A stretch of 42,158 nucleotides of DNA from Patescibacteria group bacterium (GTDB taxonomy: Bacteria; Patescibacteriota; Microgenomatia; UBA1400; MFAQ01), in NCBI GenBank assembly GCA_018819325.1, contig JAHJQJ010000031.1, forward strand, positions 1-42,158. Direction: 5' to 3'. The notes beneath the pieces were generated by a model. The model made no database searches. It worked only from the letters and a program-made list of their open reading frames with translations, and was not told the DNA's origin. Position numbers and translations under genes: made by a program. Positions 1,378 through 41,921 of this stretch are shown here, piece after piece; position 1 is the stretch's first letter; each line of letters begins with the position of its first letter.

Positions 1378-2813
1378 GGAAACATAAAGGGAAACTGATT
1401 TTTTTGGCTGTTTTGGTGGTTTTTTCTTACTTTAATTGCTTAAACAATGAGTTTGTGAGTGATGATATTTTTGCGATTGTGAATAACCCTAATTTGGGAG
1501 ATTTTGGCCAGGTTTTGGCTAATCCGTTTTATTTTTTGCGACCGTTGGAGTACTTTATAGTTTTTAGTTTGTTTGGTAAAAGTGCTTTTTATTTTAGGTT
1601 GATTAGTGTGGTGTTTCATGTTATGACTGTGTGGGGAGTGTATGCGTTAGGAGGTCTATTGGTTAGTTCGTGGGTGGGGTTGACGGCGGCGGCGTTGTTT
1701 GCGGTGCATCCATTGGGGGTCGAAGCGGTGAGCTGGATCTCGGCTGGTGGATACGTGCAGATGACGGCTTTTGCTATTTGGAGTTTGGTGTTTTATTTGT
1801 TGGTTATTCTTAACAAAGGTGAGACCTTTGTTAAATATTATGTTTGGAGTGTGGTGTTGTTGCTTTTGGCGTTGTTTAGTATGGAACGGGCGGTGGTGAT
1901 AGTGGGATTGATGGGTTTATTAAGTTTTTGTTTAGGAAATTTAAAAAAATCGTGGAAGTATTTGTTGGTACCGGTGGTTTTGAGCTTGGTTTGGGTTATG
2001 GTGAGTGTTTTGGGTGTAGGAGTAAGGACGGAAAGTTTACAAGTAAATTATTATAATGATCCTGGTAAGATAAATTTTTTAATGCAGTTGCCGATAGCAA
2101 TTTCAGAGTACTTGAAACTGTTTGTATGGCCGGTGGGGTTGACTTTGTATCATTCGGATTTGGCTTTTGATGCTTGGCAGTTTGGTTTTAGGGTGGTAGT
2201 GTTGTTGGGGTTTTTGGGCAGTATTGTTTGGACTTTTATTAAAAATAAACAAGTATTTTTTTGGTTGGCTTGGTTTTTAGTTTGTTTGTCACCTACGTTA
2301 TTGCCTTTTGGACTGTCGTGGATTGTGGCAGAAAGGTATGTGTACATGGCGATGATTGGTTTGTGTGTGGTGGTGGCCATGGGGGTGGAATGGATCCTGA
2401 AACAAGTTCAGGATGACGGAGGAAGAGACATGGTAAATTTTGTGTTGGTTTTGTTGGTGGGAAGTTTGATGTTTAGAACGATTTTGAGAAACAACGACTG
2501 GCGGACAGCGGATAGTTTATGGTTTTCGGCAGAGAGATATTCAACTTTGAGCCCGCAGAACCATAATAATTTAGGGGATGCTTATGGTAAGCGGGGGATG
2601 TTGGAGTTGTCACGCGATCATTTTTTGCGGGCAATTGAGCTTAATCCTAGATATGCAGATGCGATGCATAATTTGGGGAGTGCGTATTTGCAGATGGGGG
2701 AGATTGAAAAAGCCAGAGAAAGTTTTTTAAGGGCACTGGAGAATAATCCTAATTTGTGGCAGTCGAAGAGAGCCTTGGAATCGATTGAGGAGTGGGAGAA
2801 ACAAAACCCTTGA
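1374..2813 (+). CDS. Multi-pass membrane protein (GT-C / PMT-like) with C-terminal TPR repeats
   Basis: GTGA start/stop overlap with the upstream gene. About 10 hydrophobic helices are followed by TPR-like repeats (NNLGDAYGKRG, AIELNPRYADAMHNLGSAYLQMGEIEKA, ALENNPN). It carries in-frame palindromic inserts at 1810-1834 and 2392-2419. Confidence 0.6.
   Translation: MRKHKGKLIFLAVLVVFSYFNCLNNEFVSDDIFAIVNNPNLGDFGQVLANPFYFLRPLEYFIVFSLFGKSAFYFRLISVVFHVMTVWGVYALGGLLVSSWVGLTAAALFAVHPLGVEAVSWISAGGYVQMTAFAIWSLVFYLLVILNKGETFVKYYVWSVVLLLLALFSMERAVVIVGLMGLLSFCLGNLKKSWKYLLVPVVLSLVWVMVSVLGVGVRTESLQVNYYNDPGKINFLMQLPIAISEYLKLFVWPVGLTLYHSDLAFDAWQFGFRVVVLLGFLGSIVWTFIKNKQVFFWLAWFLVCLSPTLLPFGLSWIVAERYVYMAMIGLCVVVAMGVEWILKQVQDDGGRDMVNFVLVLLVGSLMFRTILRNNDWRTADSLWFSAERYSTLSPQNHNNLGDAYGKRGMLELSRDHFLRAIELNPRYADAMHNLGSAYLQMGEIEKARESFLRALENNPNLWQSKRALESIEEWEKQNP
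1810..1834 (+). repeat. REP-B palindrome copy (TTAACAAAGGTGAGACCTTTGTTAA), in frame within a CDS
   Basis: Perfect 10-11 bp stem with a GAGA loop. The same element flanks RAYT-2. Here it is translated as LNKGETFVK. Confidence 0.85.
2392..2419 (+). repeat. Palindromic element PE-L (GGATCCTGAAACAAGTTCAGGATGACGG), in frame within a CDS
   Basis: CCTGAA/TTCAGG hairpin with a GGATGACG tail. A second copy lies at 21798-21836. Here it is translated as ILKQVQDDG. Confidence 0.75.
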
Positions 2814-3643
2814 GGAAGTAGAGGCCATAGGTGAGGTGAGTGAGGAGGATGGTAGGAACTAGGAGGAAAGAGTGGTGGTAAAGGCCAGTTAGGATGAGGA
2901 GGGGTAAGTAAATGGGCCAGACTATGGGGAGAGTGATGAGTAAAAATGAGGGGAGCGAAGTATCCTGGTTTAAGGGAGGTTTTGGGGAGGATGCGGGCGA
3001 AAAGTCCGCGGTGAAAGCCGAAACGGGAGATTTGTTTTAAGTGAGGAATGAAGATTGGTCGGCGGTGGTGGAAGACTTGGATGCTGGGGTGGTAGAGGAT
3101 TTTTTTGTGTAGTTTATAGACAAGGTCGTGGCAGAGTTTGGTGTCTTCACCCGGCCAGAATGAGGTGTTAAAGCCCTTTACTTTATTGAAGTCTGATTTC
3201 TTGACGATTAGATTGGATGATGGAAAATCGGTAACGAAGCGGGGGGGTGAGATTTTGTTGCGATAAGTACCGGCGCCACCTGCGCCAAGCCAGGATGACC
3301 AAACTAAACCTGAGGTTTTTTGGTAAAGATTGTCTTGGGGAGGGGTAAGATTGGGGCCGCAGACGGCACTAATGTGGGCGGGTTTTAGGTGTTTTGTGGC
3401 ATTTTTGAGCCAGTCTGAGTGAGGATAAGCGTCTGAATCGATAAAGGCTAGATATTTACCTTTTGCTTTTTTGGTGGCGTAGTTGCGTTTGTTGGCGGGG
3501 TCACCAGGGCAGATTTTGTCGGTGATGATGATGGTTTCAAAATTTTGGTGAGATTGATTTTTTATGGCAGGCAGAAGTTCTGGACAAAGATCTTTTTTAG
3601 TTTTGCAGGGGATGATGATGGAGAAAGGTGGTAAGGATTGCAT
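2618..3643 (-). CDS. Family 2 glycosyltransferase with an aberrant low-complexity C-terminal tail
   Basis: GT2 motifs FSIIIPCKTK, IIITD and AFIDSDAYP (DxD). The last ~105 codons are Pro/His/Ser-rich and run 196 nt into the convergent gene 1374-2813. Confidence 0.75.
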   Translation of the reverse strand: MQSLPPFSIIIPCKTKKDLCPELLPAIKNQSHQNFETIIITDKICPGDPANKRNYATKKAKGKYLAFIDSDAYPHSDWLKNATKHLKPAHISAVCGPNLTPPQDNLYQKTSGLVWSSWLGAGGAGTYRNKISPPRFVTDFPSSNLIVKKSDFNKVKGFNTSFWPGEDTKLCHDLVYKLHKKILYHPSIQVFHHRRPIFIPHLKQISRFGFHRGLFARILPKTSLKPGYFAPLIFTHHSPHSLAHLLTPPHPNWPLPPLFPPSSYHPPHSPHLWPLLPQGFCFSHSSIDSKALFDCHKLGLFSSALKKLSLAFSISPICKYALPKLCIASAYLGLSSIARKK

Positions 3644-40489: not shown

Positions 40490-40490
40490 A

Positions 40491-41921
40491 TTATTTTGCT
40501 ATGCTAACTACTAATTTTTTTGGGTCCTGGTTGATGGAGAAGGTGCCTGATTTAGTATAGACGTTTTTGCGGCGGCGTCGGCCTTTGGGTTTGTGGACGA
40601 CGTGTAATGGATAAAATTCGAAGTAGTCTTTTTCGTCGAACCAGGCACATTTGAATTCGTACATTCTTAAACCTGTGAGACGGGATAGGGCCATGGCATA
40701 AAGGGTTAGTTGTTCGATGGGTTTTTCTTTGGCGGCGTTGGGTTTGTAGTCTAAAATGTGGACTTGGCCGTTGCGGATTTGGAGGATGTCGATGTGGCCT
40801 GTAATAAGTTTTGGAAGGTCTGCTTGGTTTGTCATTCTGGCTTGCCCAGAATCAGATTCTGGAGTCCTCGCAGACTCGTCCCCAGAATGACGGGAGGGGG
40901 AGAGGGATTCCTCGACTACGCTCGGAATGACGGAGGAAGGCGCGGGAATGACGGAAGGGGTAGGACTGGTGAGGGAGGGTTTGGTGAAGATTTGGAACCC
41001 TAGTTGGGTCTGGAGATGTAATAAATCGTCTTTGGTTATGTACACGGGCACCTCTGTAGCTACGGTGACGGAGTCGTTGTAGAGCATGAATTTTTGGATG
41101 GCGTCGTGGCGGGCTTTTCTATCTTTTACTGATTGTAAAACGAACTCGGCTAGCTGGTTGGCTAGATTATGTTTGGGCCTGACGATCATTTGGGTTTTGC
41201 TGAATATAAGAGGGGACTCGGAAGCTCTTAGGCCATCCTGGAAGTATTGGTGCGGGGTTTCGCTGGGAACCATCTCTAAAAATTCCTCTAGTGGACCAAA
41301 GTTTCTGTGTTTGATGTCTTCTCTTATAATTAGATTGCATTTGGCGCGGTGGAAGCGGTATCTGTATAGCTGGCGGTGAGCTAGGGTGGCGGTGACGGTG
41401 AAGTATTTGGGGTGGTATCTTTTTAGGGCGTAGGGGCGGAGACGGGAGAAGCGACAGATGTGTTGGAATTCTTTGAGCCAGTTTGATAGGGTGGTAGGGT
41501 GTAAGTTATAGTTTGTTTTACTCTTGAGGACGCGGCAGGCGGAGGCGCAGGAGTGGCCGAGGTGGTACAAACTTAGGGCCTCTAGCATGGCGGGCAGGGG
41601 GTAGTGTTTGCCGTGGGTGAGTTGGTGGGTGAAGGTTTTTTGGCAGTCTTTGCATTGGTAGAGTTGGATTTTTTCTCTTTTTTTCTTTCTAAATCCTCGG
41701 CGGACGAAGTTTTGGGAGAGACAAGCGGGGCAGGTGAGGGTGTTTTGGGGCGCCTTCGCACTAGGCTTCGGCGACCCGAGGGGGGCTTTTGCCGTCCCAG
41801 TGCCGATTTTGTCCGACGTTGAGATCGGTTCCGAGGGGACAGGGCTCCGCAGGCCAAAAGGCCGGAGCAATTTCTGCAGCGGGACGGTTAGTTTATTTAG
41901 CATATTTGATTTTGTTGACAT
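40491..41921 (-). CDS. Zinc-ribbon/HTH (IS1 InsA- or IS1595-like N-terminus) protein fused to a C-terminal RecB/Cas4-family PD-(D/E)xK nuclease domain
   Basis: CPACLSQNF-N17-YQCKDCQKTF zinc ribbon. C-terminal ITGHIDILQIRNGQVHILDYKPN...IEQLTLYAMAL contains the D, D-x-K and QxxxY motifs. The linker is built from three stacked palindromic elements. Confidence 0.65.
   Translation of the reverse strand: MSTKSNMLNKLTVPLQKLLRPFGLRSPVPSEPISTSDKIGTGTAKAPLGSPKPSAKAPQNTLTCPACLSQNFVRRGFRKKKREKIQLYQCKDCQKTFTHQLTHGKHYPLPAMLEALSLYHLGHSCASACRVLKSKTNYNLHPTTLSNWLKEFQHICRFSRLRPYALKRYHPKYFTVTATLAHRQLYRYRFHRAKCNLIIREDIKHRNFGPLEEFLEMVPSETPHQYFQDGLRASESPLIFSKTQMIVRPKHNLANQLAEFVLQSVKDRKARHDAIQKFMLYNDSVTVATEVPVYITKDDLLHLQTQLGFQIFTKPSLTSPTPSVIPAPSSVIPSVVEESLSPSRHSGDESARTPESDSGQARMTNQADLPKLITGHIDILQIRNGQVHILDYKPNAAKEKPIEQLTLYAMALSRLTGLRMYEFKCAWFDEKDYFEFYPLHVVHKPKGRRRRKNVYTKSGTFSINQDPKKLVVSIAK
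40831..40892 (-). mobile_element. MITE-like element PE-G, inverted copy, in frame within the nuclease gene linker
   Basis: GTCATTCTGGCTTGCCCAGAATCAGATTCTGGAGTCCTCGCAGACTCGTCCCCAGAATGACG, translated as RHSGDESARTPESDSGQARMT. Confidence 0.8.
40904..40932 (+). repeat. Palindromic element PE-J type copy, in frame within the nuclease gene linker
   Basis: GGGATTCCTCGACTACGCTCGGAATGACG. A further half-element, GCGGGAATGACGG, lies at 40942-40954. Confidence 0.7.
41836..41887 (+). repeat. Palindromic element PE-F copy, in frame near the nuclease gene 5' end
   Basis: Translated on the minus strand as PLQKLLRPFGLRSPVP. Confidence 0.8.

Follow-up and report, generated by a model that had tools for sequence, protein, structure and literature searches.

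Short palindromic repeats of probable REP type, and Y1/HUH transposase genes flanked by some of them, in a genome segment of a Patescibacteria group bacterium

How do dozens of short repeats come to lie in one bacterial genome segment, about half of them in frame inside genes, and what moves them? The question is raised by a stretch of 42,158 nt from a Patescibacteria group bacterium (contig JAHJQJ010000031.1 of assembly GCA_018819325.1), called the window below. The initial annotation, made from the sequence alone, had listed about 50 copies from at least 10 families, more than 20 of them in open reading frames (ORFs), and had likened them to the Rickettsia palindromic elements (RPEs). Our recount agrees with these figures, giving about 45-50 copies of at least 12 families with about 25 within ORFs, and the families were recovered by repeat search and by self-BLAST alike. 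We consider it likely that the repeats are mobile hairpin elements of the repetitive extragenic palindromic (REP) type, which fall into three classes, are in part mobilised by Y1/HUH transposases and are filtered by selection. The first class probably consists of palindromes that flank, and are mobilised by, Y1/HUH enzymes of the REP-associated tyrosine transposase (RAYT) kind, i.e. REP-A, REP-B and REP-C together with the orphan types O and L. The second class comprises the CGTC-tagged REPs PE-J, PE-G, PE-K and the looser PE-D, which by their sequence features belong to a pan-bacterial superfamily, and the third the longer composite elements PE-H, PE-E, PE-F and a 75-nt repeat. For comparison we used five syntenic contigs from relatives (L011, L012, L013, L014, L015), the related metagenome-assembled genome (MAG) JAHITH01 and a P-numbered set of DprA proteins.

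Hairpins are far more frequent in the window than in shuffled sequence. Perfect hairpins with a stem of at least 8 and a loop of at most 12 occur 27 times, against 5.3±2.3 in 100 dinucleotide shuffles, and those with a stem of at least 9 occur 14 times against 1.2, which is a 5- to 11-fold excess. Folded as single-stranded DNA, REP-A, REP-B, REP-C, PE-G, PE-J, PE-K, PE-L, PE-H, the obg palindrome and the 75-nt repeat reach z values of -3.2 to -8.1, and 0 of 200 shuffles were as stable. PE-D, PE-E, PE-F and the yraN insert (z -0.5 to -1.6) fold no better than shuffles, so the word “palindromic”, first applied to all families, fits most of them but not all. By approximate matching in the window, we counted 4 copies of REP-A, 6 of REP-B, 3 of REP-C, 3 of PE-D, 3 of PE-G (plus two compound units), 2 of PE-J, 2 of PE-K, 3 of PE-H, 2 of type L (core GGTTACGAACC), 5 of PE-E, 4 of PE-F and 2 of the 75-nt repeat, besides single palindromes in obg and yraN. 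Six-frame translation returned every peptide quoted in the initial annotation at the implied coordinates, such as LNKGETFVK (1809-1835), LTKVRPLLR (30722-30748), VHLQGAH (22164-22184), DSRLRGND (29652-29675) and DSGQARMT (5472-5495 and 40830-40853(-)). The pair formed by the fibre-like protein and its paralogue was located as well (35349-35420(-) and 27111-27152(-)); the paralogous C-terminus is without the 16-aa segment.

Three window ORFs contain the Pfam Y1_Tnp domain (3717-4388(+), 18541-19194(-) and 34218-34868(+)), and each of these HUH/Y1 transposase genes is flanked by its own palindrome, which is the REP/RAYT (REPtron) arrangement. In REPtron 1 (3672-4409, +), identical 19-nt REP-A palindromes at 3672-3690 and 4391-4409 stand on either side of the first gene. 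REPtron 2 (18520-19242, -) has REP-B at 18520-18544 and 19218-19242 around the second; its left copy doubles as coding sequence, being the C-terminus of the methyltransferase gene 17769-18557, and the same arrangement is found in an independent MAG (L009). REPtron 3 (34172-35272, +) has REP-C at 34172-34201 and 34886-34917 around the third gene, followed by a solo REP-C (35226-35272) that shares a 47-nt unit with it. The REP-C stems measure 14-15 bp and fold with z -7.5. In the three window Y1 proteins and in five relatives, neither the HUH motif (MPNHFHL) nor the tyrosine motif (RYIHLNP) varies, and in a three-sequence profile the two motifs align with the HUH and Tyr of ISDra2 TnpA. In NCBIfam, REP_Tyr_transpos (NF047646) is the sole significant family for the Y1 proteins. 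The same profile matched the ISDra2 and IS200 transposases in the PDB and, weakly, E. coli TnpArep, while phmmer with one Y1 protein gave no match among PDB sequences. The top Foldseek match of an AlphaFold model built from three sequences, which is of low confidence (pLDDT 50), was 4er8, E. coli TnpArep bound to a REP hairpin (E 3e-4, TM 0.46/0.56); we take this fold match as weak support only.

The relatives link transposase and repeat more closely. A Y1 gene adjoins yraN in all five syntenic contigs, and the palindrome that flanks it differs between them, being ...ATGTAAAGGTTACGAACCTTTACAT... in L011, ATCTGGGGTTCAACCTC..GAGGTTGAACCCCAGAT in L012/13, GGGGTGCGACCCC in L014 and GAGGGTTTAACCCT..AGGGTTAAACCCTC in L015. 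The flanking palindrome is in every case the abundant one in its own locus (7 copies in L011, 4 in L012/13, 4-5 in L014 and 4 in L015), with 7 L-type copies in 20.8 kb of L011, 4 O-type copies in 7.6 kb of L012/13 and 4 V-type copies in 15.1 kb. It also recurs inside genes of the same genome, the L015 type in obg and dprA and the L012 type in dprA. Because they or their core flank Y1 genes of relatives, the 33-nt obg palindrome and the GGTTACGAACC pair of the window belong to families that have a transposase in a relative. The former, a perfect palindrome in frame in obg (type O; 22604-22636(+), z -8.1), is the palindrome around the Y1 gene and in the dprA of L012/L013. The latter (type L) lies at 7273-7297(+) in a GT2 gene and at 8512-8540(+) in the methyltransferase gene 7933-8583, and its core flanks the Y1 gene of L011. 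The yraN-adjacent Y1 genes are 33-57% identical between relatives and stand on either strand; the DprA proteins of the same relatives are 76-87% identical to that of the window. Judged from these alignments, the yraN locus looks like a slot in which a transposase and its repeat get replaced together.

REP-A and REP-B also occur away from transposase genes. REP-A is found in frame in obg (22164-22182(+), VHLQGA), where 25 nt are identical with the copy at 4385-4409, and directly 3' of a tRNA-Ala gene (24160-24178(+)). After this tRNA, a 99%-identical MAG has a 51-nt unit and REP-B instead; intergenic sites turn over as well. REP-B lies in frame in a PMT_2/TPR glycosyltransferase gene (1810-1834(+), LNKGETFV) and at the 3' end of ORF 19811-20452(-) (19790-19814(+)), the latter copy being conserved in a MAG (L003). 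Another REP-B (30722-30746) follows a PE-D (30690-30716) on the + strand, both being read in frame within the dprA linker that joins the DprA domain to the winged-helix domain, and a further one (30896-30920) together with PE-J (30923-30950, both +) lies between dprA and comM.

One dprA of the related MAG deserves description here. The DprA of JAHITH01 (P0002) ends right after REP-B, reading into the REP-B/PE-J spacer (window 30722-30920). This is the expected result of a deletion between two REP-Bs 174 nt apart, with which the winged-helix domain would go, and a fragment like the missing DprA part follows another REP-B on contig L004. The truncation may reflect a genuine rearrangement or a repeat collapsed during assembly. 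It bears on the suspicion that the repeats as a whole are assembly artefacts or chimeric joins, since short repeats can mislead short-read assemblers and this gene is cut exactly at REP-B, where a collapsed repeat is possible. But the same elements recur in the same places in assemblies made independently, from other samples and with other assemblers (REPtron 2 in L009, REP-B in L003, the obg palindrome in L011), the relatives' assemblies hold related elements at the same sites, and to either side of the elements the reading frames stay unbroken and conserved. We give an artefactual origin, which the initial annotation had named as a possible refutation, a chance close to nil.

The second class was recognised through a published definition. 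CGTC-tagged REPs have a terminal CGTC (sometimes TGTC), a stem of 8-9 bp starting with AT, a loop of 4-5 nt and a CCA tail; RPE-4 and RPE-6 of Rickettsia conorii are the CGTC-4 and CGTC-1 REPs, and the class also holds dRS3 of Neisseria (Di Nocera, De Gregorio & Rocco 2013, PMC3733652). It is through this definition that PE-J, PE-G, PE-K and PE-D are linked to RPE-4 and RPE-6. On the + strand all four families end with (G/A)ATGACG; the stem is followed by GACG, GACA or GACC in every PE-J, PE-G and PE-K copy and by (G/A)TGAC(G/A) or GTAACG in the PE-D copies, so that the unpaired terminal CGTC, TGTC or CCTC of the superfamily is present. PE-J has the 8-bp stem ATTCCCGC and a loop of 4 (reverse complement CGTC-ATTCCCGC-GCAG-GCGGGAAT-CCAT), PE-K the 8-bp stem ATCCTGAA and a loop of 5, and PE-G the 7-bp stem ATTCTGG and a loop of 5. 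These three agree with the published stem and loop, while PE-D departs from them with a bulged stem of 5-7 bp. The tail is CCAT in 5 of 5 PE-J copies and variable in PE-G (CT, CC, CTT). By these features PE-J, PE-G and PE-K, and more loosely PE-D, are classified as CGTC-tagged REPs.

Copies of this class lie within and between genes. PE-J is in frame in comFC (29649-29676(+), DSRLRGND, z -4.0), PE-G in the GT2 gene GT2c (5472-5495(+), DSGQARMT) and in a PD-(D/E)XK gene (40830-40869(-)), and PE-K in the PMT_2/TPR gene (2394-2418(+), ILKQVQDD, z -5.0), with a second, intergenic PE-K at 21813-21836. Two compound PE-G-type units with the outer inverted repeat TGTCATTCTGG...CCAGAATGACG are found between comFC and dprA (29823-29903 and 29966-30031, +). 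PE-D occurs between genes upstream of tRNA-Ala (24026-24052(+)) and, in degenerate form, in the methyltransferase gene 7933-8583 (8044-8070(+), PRTGRC). At least 120 metagenome contigs, which come from widely differing environments and have GC of 36-71% and no skew, contain the exact PE-J 25-mer GGATTCCCGCCTGCGCGGGAATGAC; there it encodes DSRLRGND, WIPACAGMT, SFPRRRES or VIPAQAGIQ in called or open frames. On the strength of these exact matches, PE-J is regarded as a pan-bacterial element, not a speciality of the candidate phyla radiation (CPR). Scoring of ORF occupancy for these matches was dropped, because stop-free frames are too common in high-GC contigs.

What do the in-frame copies do to their host proteins? 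In alignments with orthologues 72-93% identical, about 14 intragenic copies appear as in-frame indels or as equal-length loop replacements. The ligase-like TPR protein has a 23-aa in-frame PE-E insert (25797-25885) that is missing from the MAG (93% identity) and from L014. GT2c gains a net 4 aa by PE-G versus 8 close orthologues and is conserved through its C-terminus. In the PMT2-TPR protein, REP-B is present in 4 of 9 orthologues with a net gain of 5 aa, the rest reading RGEK, and PE-K adds a net 4 aa versus more distant orthologues. The degenerate PE-D adds 6 aa to MT11a versus the L015 orthologue, and PE-H adds 15 aa to the comM linker versus L011, L014 and Legionella ComM. In the related MAG, REP-B follows the conserved GNPWVF in frame in one ORF. 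Judging by its GNPW motif, this ORF may be dihydrouridine synthase-like. In obg, REP-A changes the length by +3 aa versus L011, -1 aa versus L014 and 0 versus E. coli, its loop being unlike that of all orthologues, and the type O palindrome exchanges 11 aa for 11 aa, L014 having an unrelated 11 aa there. Thus the elements do occupy loops and linkers of real genes without breaking the frame, in the manner of Rickettsia RPEs, and clean insertion, which had been expected throughout, describes several hosts; some copies swap loop residues with little or no net length change. The element lengths are 19, 24, 25 and 28 nt and the net changes are multiples of three; since 19, 25 and 28 are not, junction adjustment under selection must be assumed. 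It was also considered that intragenic copies avoid - strand genes, which was dropped because a PE-H-like copy and the PE-E copies lie in such genes.

Which family occupies a given loop site in yraN, comFC, dprA, comM and obg differs from genome to genome. For example, the yraN site is filled with PPTRKATARR in the window, PE-J and PE-D in L012/13, PE-G in L014 and PE-D in L015, and L011 is without 10-16 aa present in the window. At the PE-J site of comFC, L014 and L015 are empty and L011 has a different element. Among 20 aligned DprA proteins, P0004 carries the peptide of PE-D but no REP-B, both are missing from P0006/7/13, and other relatives have other palindromes there. These comparisons bear on the view that the recurrent peptides do not come from inserted DNA but are protein motifs of ancestral origin or segments of low complexity. 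For such a view speak the copies without net length change (REP-A in obg is gap-free versus E. coli ObgE, and type O is an even exchange) and the REP-B of PMT2-TPR, which is common to four orthologues down to 72% identity. But identical strings of 19-28 nt recur in intergenic DNA, in unrelated genes and in several reading frames, close orthologues are without the elements, and distant ones (E. coli ObgE, Legionella ComM) are without the peptides. Ancestral motifs are therefore highly improbable, and the claim that the peptides are not ancestral holds.

The orientation of the repeats is almost uniform. Among families with an asymmetric loop or tail, which alone were scored, 58 of the 60 copies that could be scored, taking window and relatives together, share one polarity relative to the locally G-rich strand (p=3e-15; 27:1 in the window alone), the two opposite copies being the PE-G at 40830-40869(-) and a REP-B in L001. 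By convention the G-rich strand is taken as the lagging-strand template, i.e. the strand that is single-stranded. For IS608 and ISDra2, coupling of Y1/HUH transposition to this template is established (PMC6006769), and because of this coupling and the uniform polarity we propose a single-strand, replication-coupled route for the repeats. The transposase would recognise the hairpin on the single-stranded lagging-strand template, and the hairpin would be cut and rejoined at a new single-stranded site, which would give every copy one polarity relative to the G-rich strand. Landing sites would mostly be genes, because the coding density of the genome is 93%, and selection would retain those copies that are stop-free, restore the frame and lie in tolerant loops or linkers. 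The few permissive sites would then be refilled repeatedly by whichever family is active in a given genome.

The strand composition on which this polarity is measured is itself extreme. The + strand of the window has 30.7% G and 13.3% C, with a GC skew of +0.40 to +0.55 in each 2-kb bin up to 34 kb, irrespective of gene strand, and about 0 across 36-40 kb. Third codon positions have a skew of +0.70 in genes on the + strand and of -0.78 (coding strand) in those on the - strand; therefore, it tracks the DNA strand, not transcription. It is not an artefact, because the independent MAG and the five syntenic contigs from other samples show the same skew. Strand disparity has already been published for the order UBA1400, in whose lineage one strand is G-rich over nearly the whole chromosome and unidirectional replication has been proposed (PMC7143001), and the window is an even stronger case.

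Polarity also helps to judge whether the hairpins are host-selected signals kept in genes, such as DNA-uptake sequences, transcription attenuators or terminators, or mRNA stabilisers. The competence genes comFC, dprA and comM are prominent among the hosts, REPs in replication and repair genes were noted by Di Nocera et al. (PMC3733652), PE-H keeps its hairpin though the inner stem sequence changes fully among four copies, and the same sites are occupied in many genomes. Against this, there are many unrelated low-copy families instead of one abundant motif, occupancy varies and some alleles of close relatives are empty, orientation tracks the DNA strand and is not random, and the families co-vary with the resident transposase. 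A signal function is very unlikely to account for the repeats.

Several observations weigh against REP-type elements mobilised by Y1/HUH enzymes. RAYT-linked REPs form the GTAG superfamily (PMC3733652), and no GTAG tag stands beside the stems of the palindromes flanking the window Y1 genes. The Y1 proteins score under the curated cut-off of NF047646 (30.6 bits for REPtron 1, 48.9 and 52.8 for the others, versus 80 bits), and their structural model is of low confidence. No window Y1 gene has CGTC REP flanks, and for CGTC REPs no dedicated transposase is known (PMC3733652). PE-D, PE-E and PE-F are poor hairpins, the equal-length replacements in obg are not predicted by simple insertion, and repeated use of one site could come from targeting rather than selection. 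The data comprise the 42 kb window and about 100 kb of relatives. Finally, the flanking palindromes are in direct orientation, with the same loop polarity on the + strand at both ends. REPs that flank RAYT genes reportedly stand in inverted orientation, as Nunvar is said to have described in 2010.

Direct flanks are what ordinary selfish insertion sequences (IS) would show, as the left-end and right-end hairpins of IS200/IS605 elements are in direct orientation on the top strand. The Y1 genes might then be IS200/IS605-type elements and the solo hairpins derivatives like palindrome-associated (PATE) or miniature inverted-repeat (MITE) transposable elements, not domesticated RAYT/REP. The PDB profile matches are indeed stronger for ISDra2 TnpA than for TnpArep, Y1-3 (34218-34868) is a compositional outlier (GC 0.34, skew -0.05 versus +0.29 in its flanks), which suggests recent arrival, and the yraN-adjacent gene varies in sequence and strand between relatives. 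But the window has several copies of each hairpin and a single gene of the corresponding Y1 type, the hairpin is identical at both ends, a Y1 gene stands at the same yraN-adjacent locus in all five relatives, the proteins have about 220 aa with RAYT as sole NCBIfam match, and there is no tnpB gene. We regard plain insertion sequences as unlikely and prefer REP-type elements served by RAYT-like enzymes. A bolder extension of this preference has a low, though appreciable, chance of being right: the G-rich strand might be chronically single-stranded, which would drive both the extreme skew and one-polarity REP transposition, CGTC REPs might move by the same Y1/HUH route, and the refilling of loops might be a targeted “hairpin-replaces-hairpin” reaction. 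If chronic single-strand exposure were true, these genomes would be a natural system for how REPs move.

The third class consists of longer composite elements. PE-H is in frame in the comM linker (31394-31447(+), STSEQIARKQSVSDEKP), and related copies lie between genes (24809-24872) and in ORF 27057-27947(-) (about 27690-27730). Its arms are conserved, and the inner hairpin is wholly different in each of the four copies compared. PE-E lies in both large genes for surface proteins, with copies at 25797-25885 and 26065-26128 (+) in the O-antigen-ligase-like/TPR gene and at 35346-35631 (+) in the C-terminal part of a 1568-aa fibre-like gene. PE-F lies inside the 1568-aa gene (35937-35988(+)) and at 32600-32644, 39837-39888 and 41836-41886, and it is also in frame in the comM linker of L012/L013; where it stands close to the N-terminus, in two ORFs of 1568 aa and 476 aa, the true start codon may follow it. 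The 75-nt repeat is a branched hairpin, and its two copies (40094-40168 and 40325-40399, +, 85% identical, z -5.9) are inside ORF 39977-40489(-), which has no Pfam or NCBIfam family, even after in silico removal of both inserts. Besides, yraN has an imperfect palindrome in frame (33893-33931(+), PPTRKATARRSE), and relatives of this insert, CCCGCCTWCG...CGAGGCGAAG, occur in comFC and obg of L011.

Of the hosts named initially, the conserved genes stand, and the “4HB” label of ORF 39977-40489(-) could not be confirmed. ORFs 23981-24274(-) and 22960-23214(+), which seemed to host elements, are spurious, as both overlap tRNA-Ala genes, such long spurious ORFs arising in this genome because its composition is strand-biased. 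Since the supposed hosts overlap tRNA-Ala genes, REP-A at 24160 and PE-D at 24026 are intergenic. The two tRNA-Ala genes (cgc and ggc anticodons), in inverted orientation, bracket a PIN-domain gene (22978-24152); a 51-nt tandem repeat of 2.4 copies lies between them (23078-23201), and one 51-nt unit follows the tRNA in a related MAG (L002). An Rfam scan of the window returned the two tRNAs and nothing else.

The region from comM to the window's end holds further duplications. The segments 33482-33588 and 40211-40292 were considered as comM 3' fragments marking integrated islands, which was rejected, as only 33554-33588 (35 nt) matches comM and the remainder matches the middle of ORF 39977-40489. 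The final 35 nt of comM (32536-32570) thus recur at 33554-33588 and bracket about 1 kb with a DUF3800 gene (32686-33357, -). Because yraN directly follows comM in all relatives, the segment has the look of an insertion into the 3' end of comM. Beside comM there is also a second copy of the 5' end of the PD-(D/E)XK gene (32594-32684 versus 41836-41940); the duplicated stretch takes in a PE-F copy, the start of the coding sequence (MSTKS...) and TTGACA...TATATT, which resembles a promoter. In the 1568-aa product of the fibre ORF (35274-39980(-)), aa 49-87 form a C-terminal intein-splicing (Hint) fragment, aa 752-812 a Peptidase_S74 chaperone domain and aa 1482-1529 a K1-lyase C-terminal domain. 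The ORF also contains a 60-nt coding repeat in 7 copies (37010-39553), and its GC skew is near 0, unlike that of the remaining window.

The window is cellular DNA, with obg, the tRNA-Ala genes, comFC, dprA, comM and yraN, a long glycosyltransferase/methyltransferase island and pilin-like and fibre-like genes. A RuBisCO large-chain-like gene and a B12-binding radical SAM gene (10091-11269 and 13846-15216) are embedded in the island. The nearest named homologues are from Collierbacteria and Beckwithbacteria (Microgenomates group, CPR), and the host is a small-genome CPR bacterium related to them, of the order UBA1400.

If the repeats are what we propose, the biology of REP/RAYT and CGTC REPs extends to the CPR. 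Elements that survive in genes affect gene calling, orthologue alignment, protein-length statistics and structure prediction of CPR proteins, including competence proteins and Obg, in a minimal genome. The near-perfect polarity of all families, CGTC REPs included, is indirect in vivo evidence for single-strand, replication-coupled movement, and the turnover of transposase and repeat at the yraN locus, together with the re-use of loop sites, offers a tractable comparative data set.

How do these repeats compare with known systems? REPs, RAYTs, CGTC REPs, in-frame REPs and the UBA1400 skew have all been described already. Our literature search returned no report of REP/RAYT or RPE-like elements in CPR, and the literature consulted for comparison did not contain the uniform polarity of all families, the re-use of loop sites by different families or the transposase turnover at one locus. 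In-frame palindromic elements are known from Rickettsia (Ogata et al. 2000, as cited in PMC3733652), and intragenic in-frame REPs have been described in Opitutus terrae, Thauera and Thioalkalivibrio as well as R. conorii (PMC3733652), so the likeness to RPEs first noted here holds for in-frame insertion in functional genes and is not peculiar to Rickettsia. Like RPEs, the present elements insert in frame in functional housekeeping genes and encode extra loop peptides. RPE-1 is about 100-150 bp long and forms one dominant family, whereas here at least 12 families of 19-80 nt occur, with identifiable transposase genes and re-use of sites by different families.

With IS200/IS605 elements (IS608, ISDra2), the window shares a Y1/HUH enzyme, hairpin recognition and strand-specific orientation (PMC6006769), and differs by dispersed bare hairpins without a gene, the absence of tnpB and identical hairpins at both ends. 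PE-J, PE-G and PE-K resemble CGTC REPs in the terminal CGTC or TGTC, the 7-8 bp stem starting with AT and the 4-5 nt loop, with the CCA tail in PE-J, and intragenic in-frame copies are found in both. However, the copies here are mostly singletons of one polarity relative to the G-rich strand, while head-to-head dimers prevail in PMC3733652; PE-D fits the definition loosely, and the host, a CPR bacterium, is outside the phyla surveyed there. Compared with the REP/RAYT systems of E. coli (TnpArep) and Pseudomonas (REPINs), the window lacks the GTAG tag and has direct flanks and proteins of about 220 aa under the NCBIfam cut-off. Nearly all copies are singlets rather than the inverted doublets of REPINs, with compound inverted units only at 29823-30031, and about half are intragenic, whereas overlap with coding regions is described as rare for REPs (PMC12306157). 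The two nevertheless have in common a Y1/HUH gene flanked by a palindrome that is dispersed in the genome, several repeat-specific transposases per genome, a locus conserved among relatives, and a transposase and a repeat that vary together.

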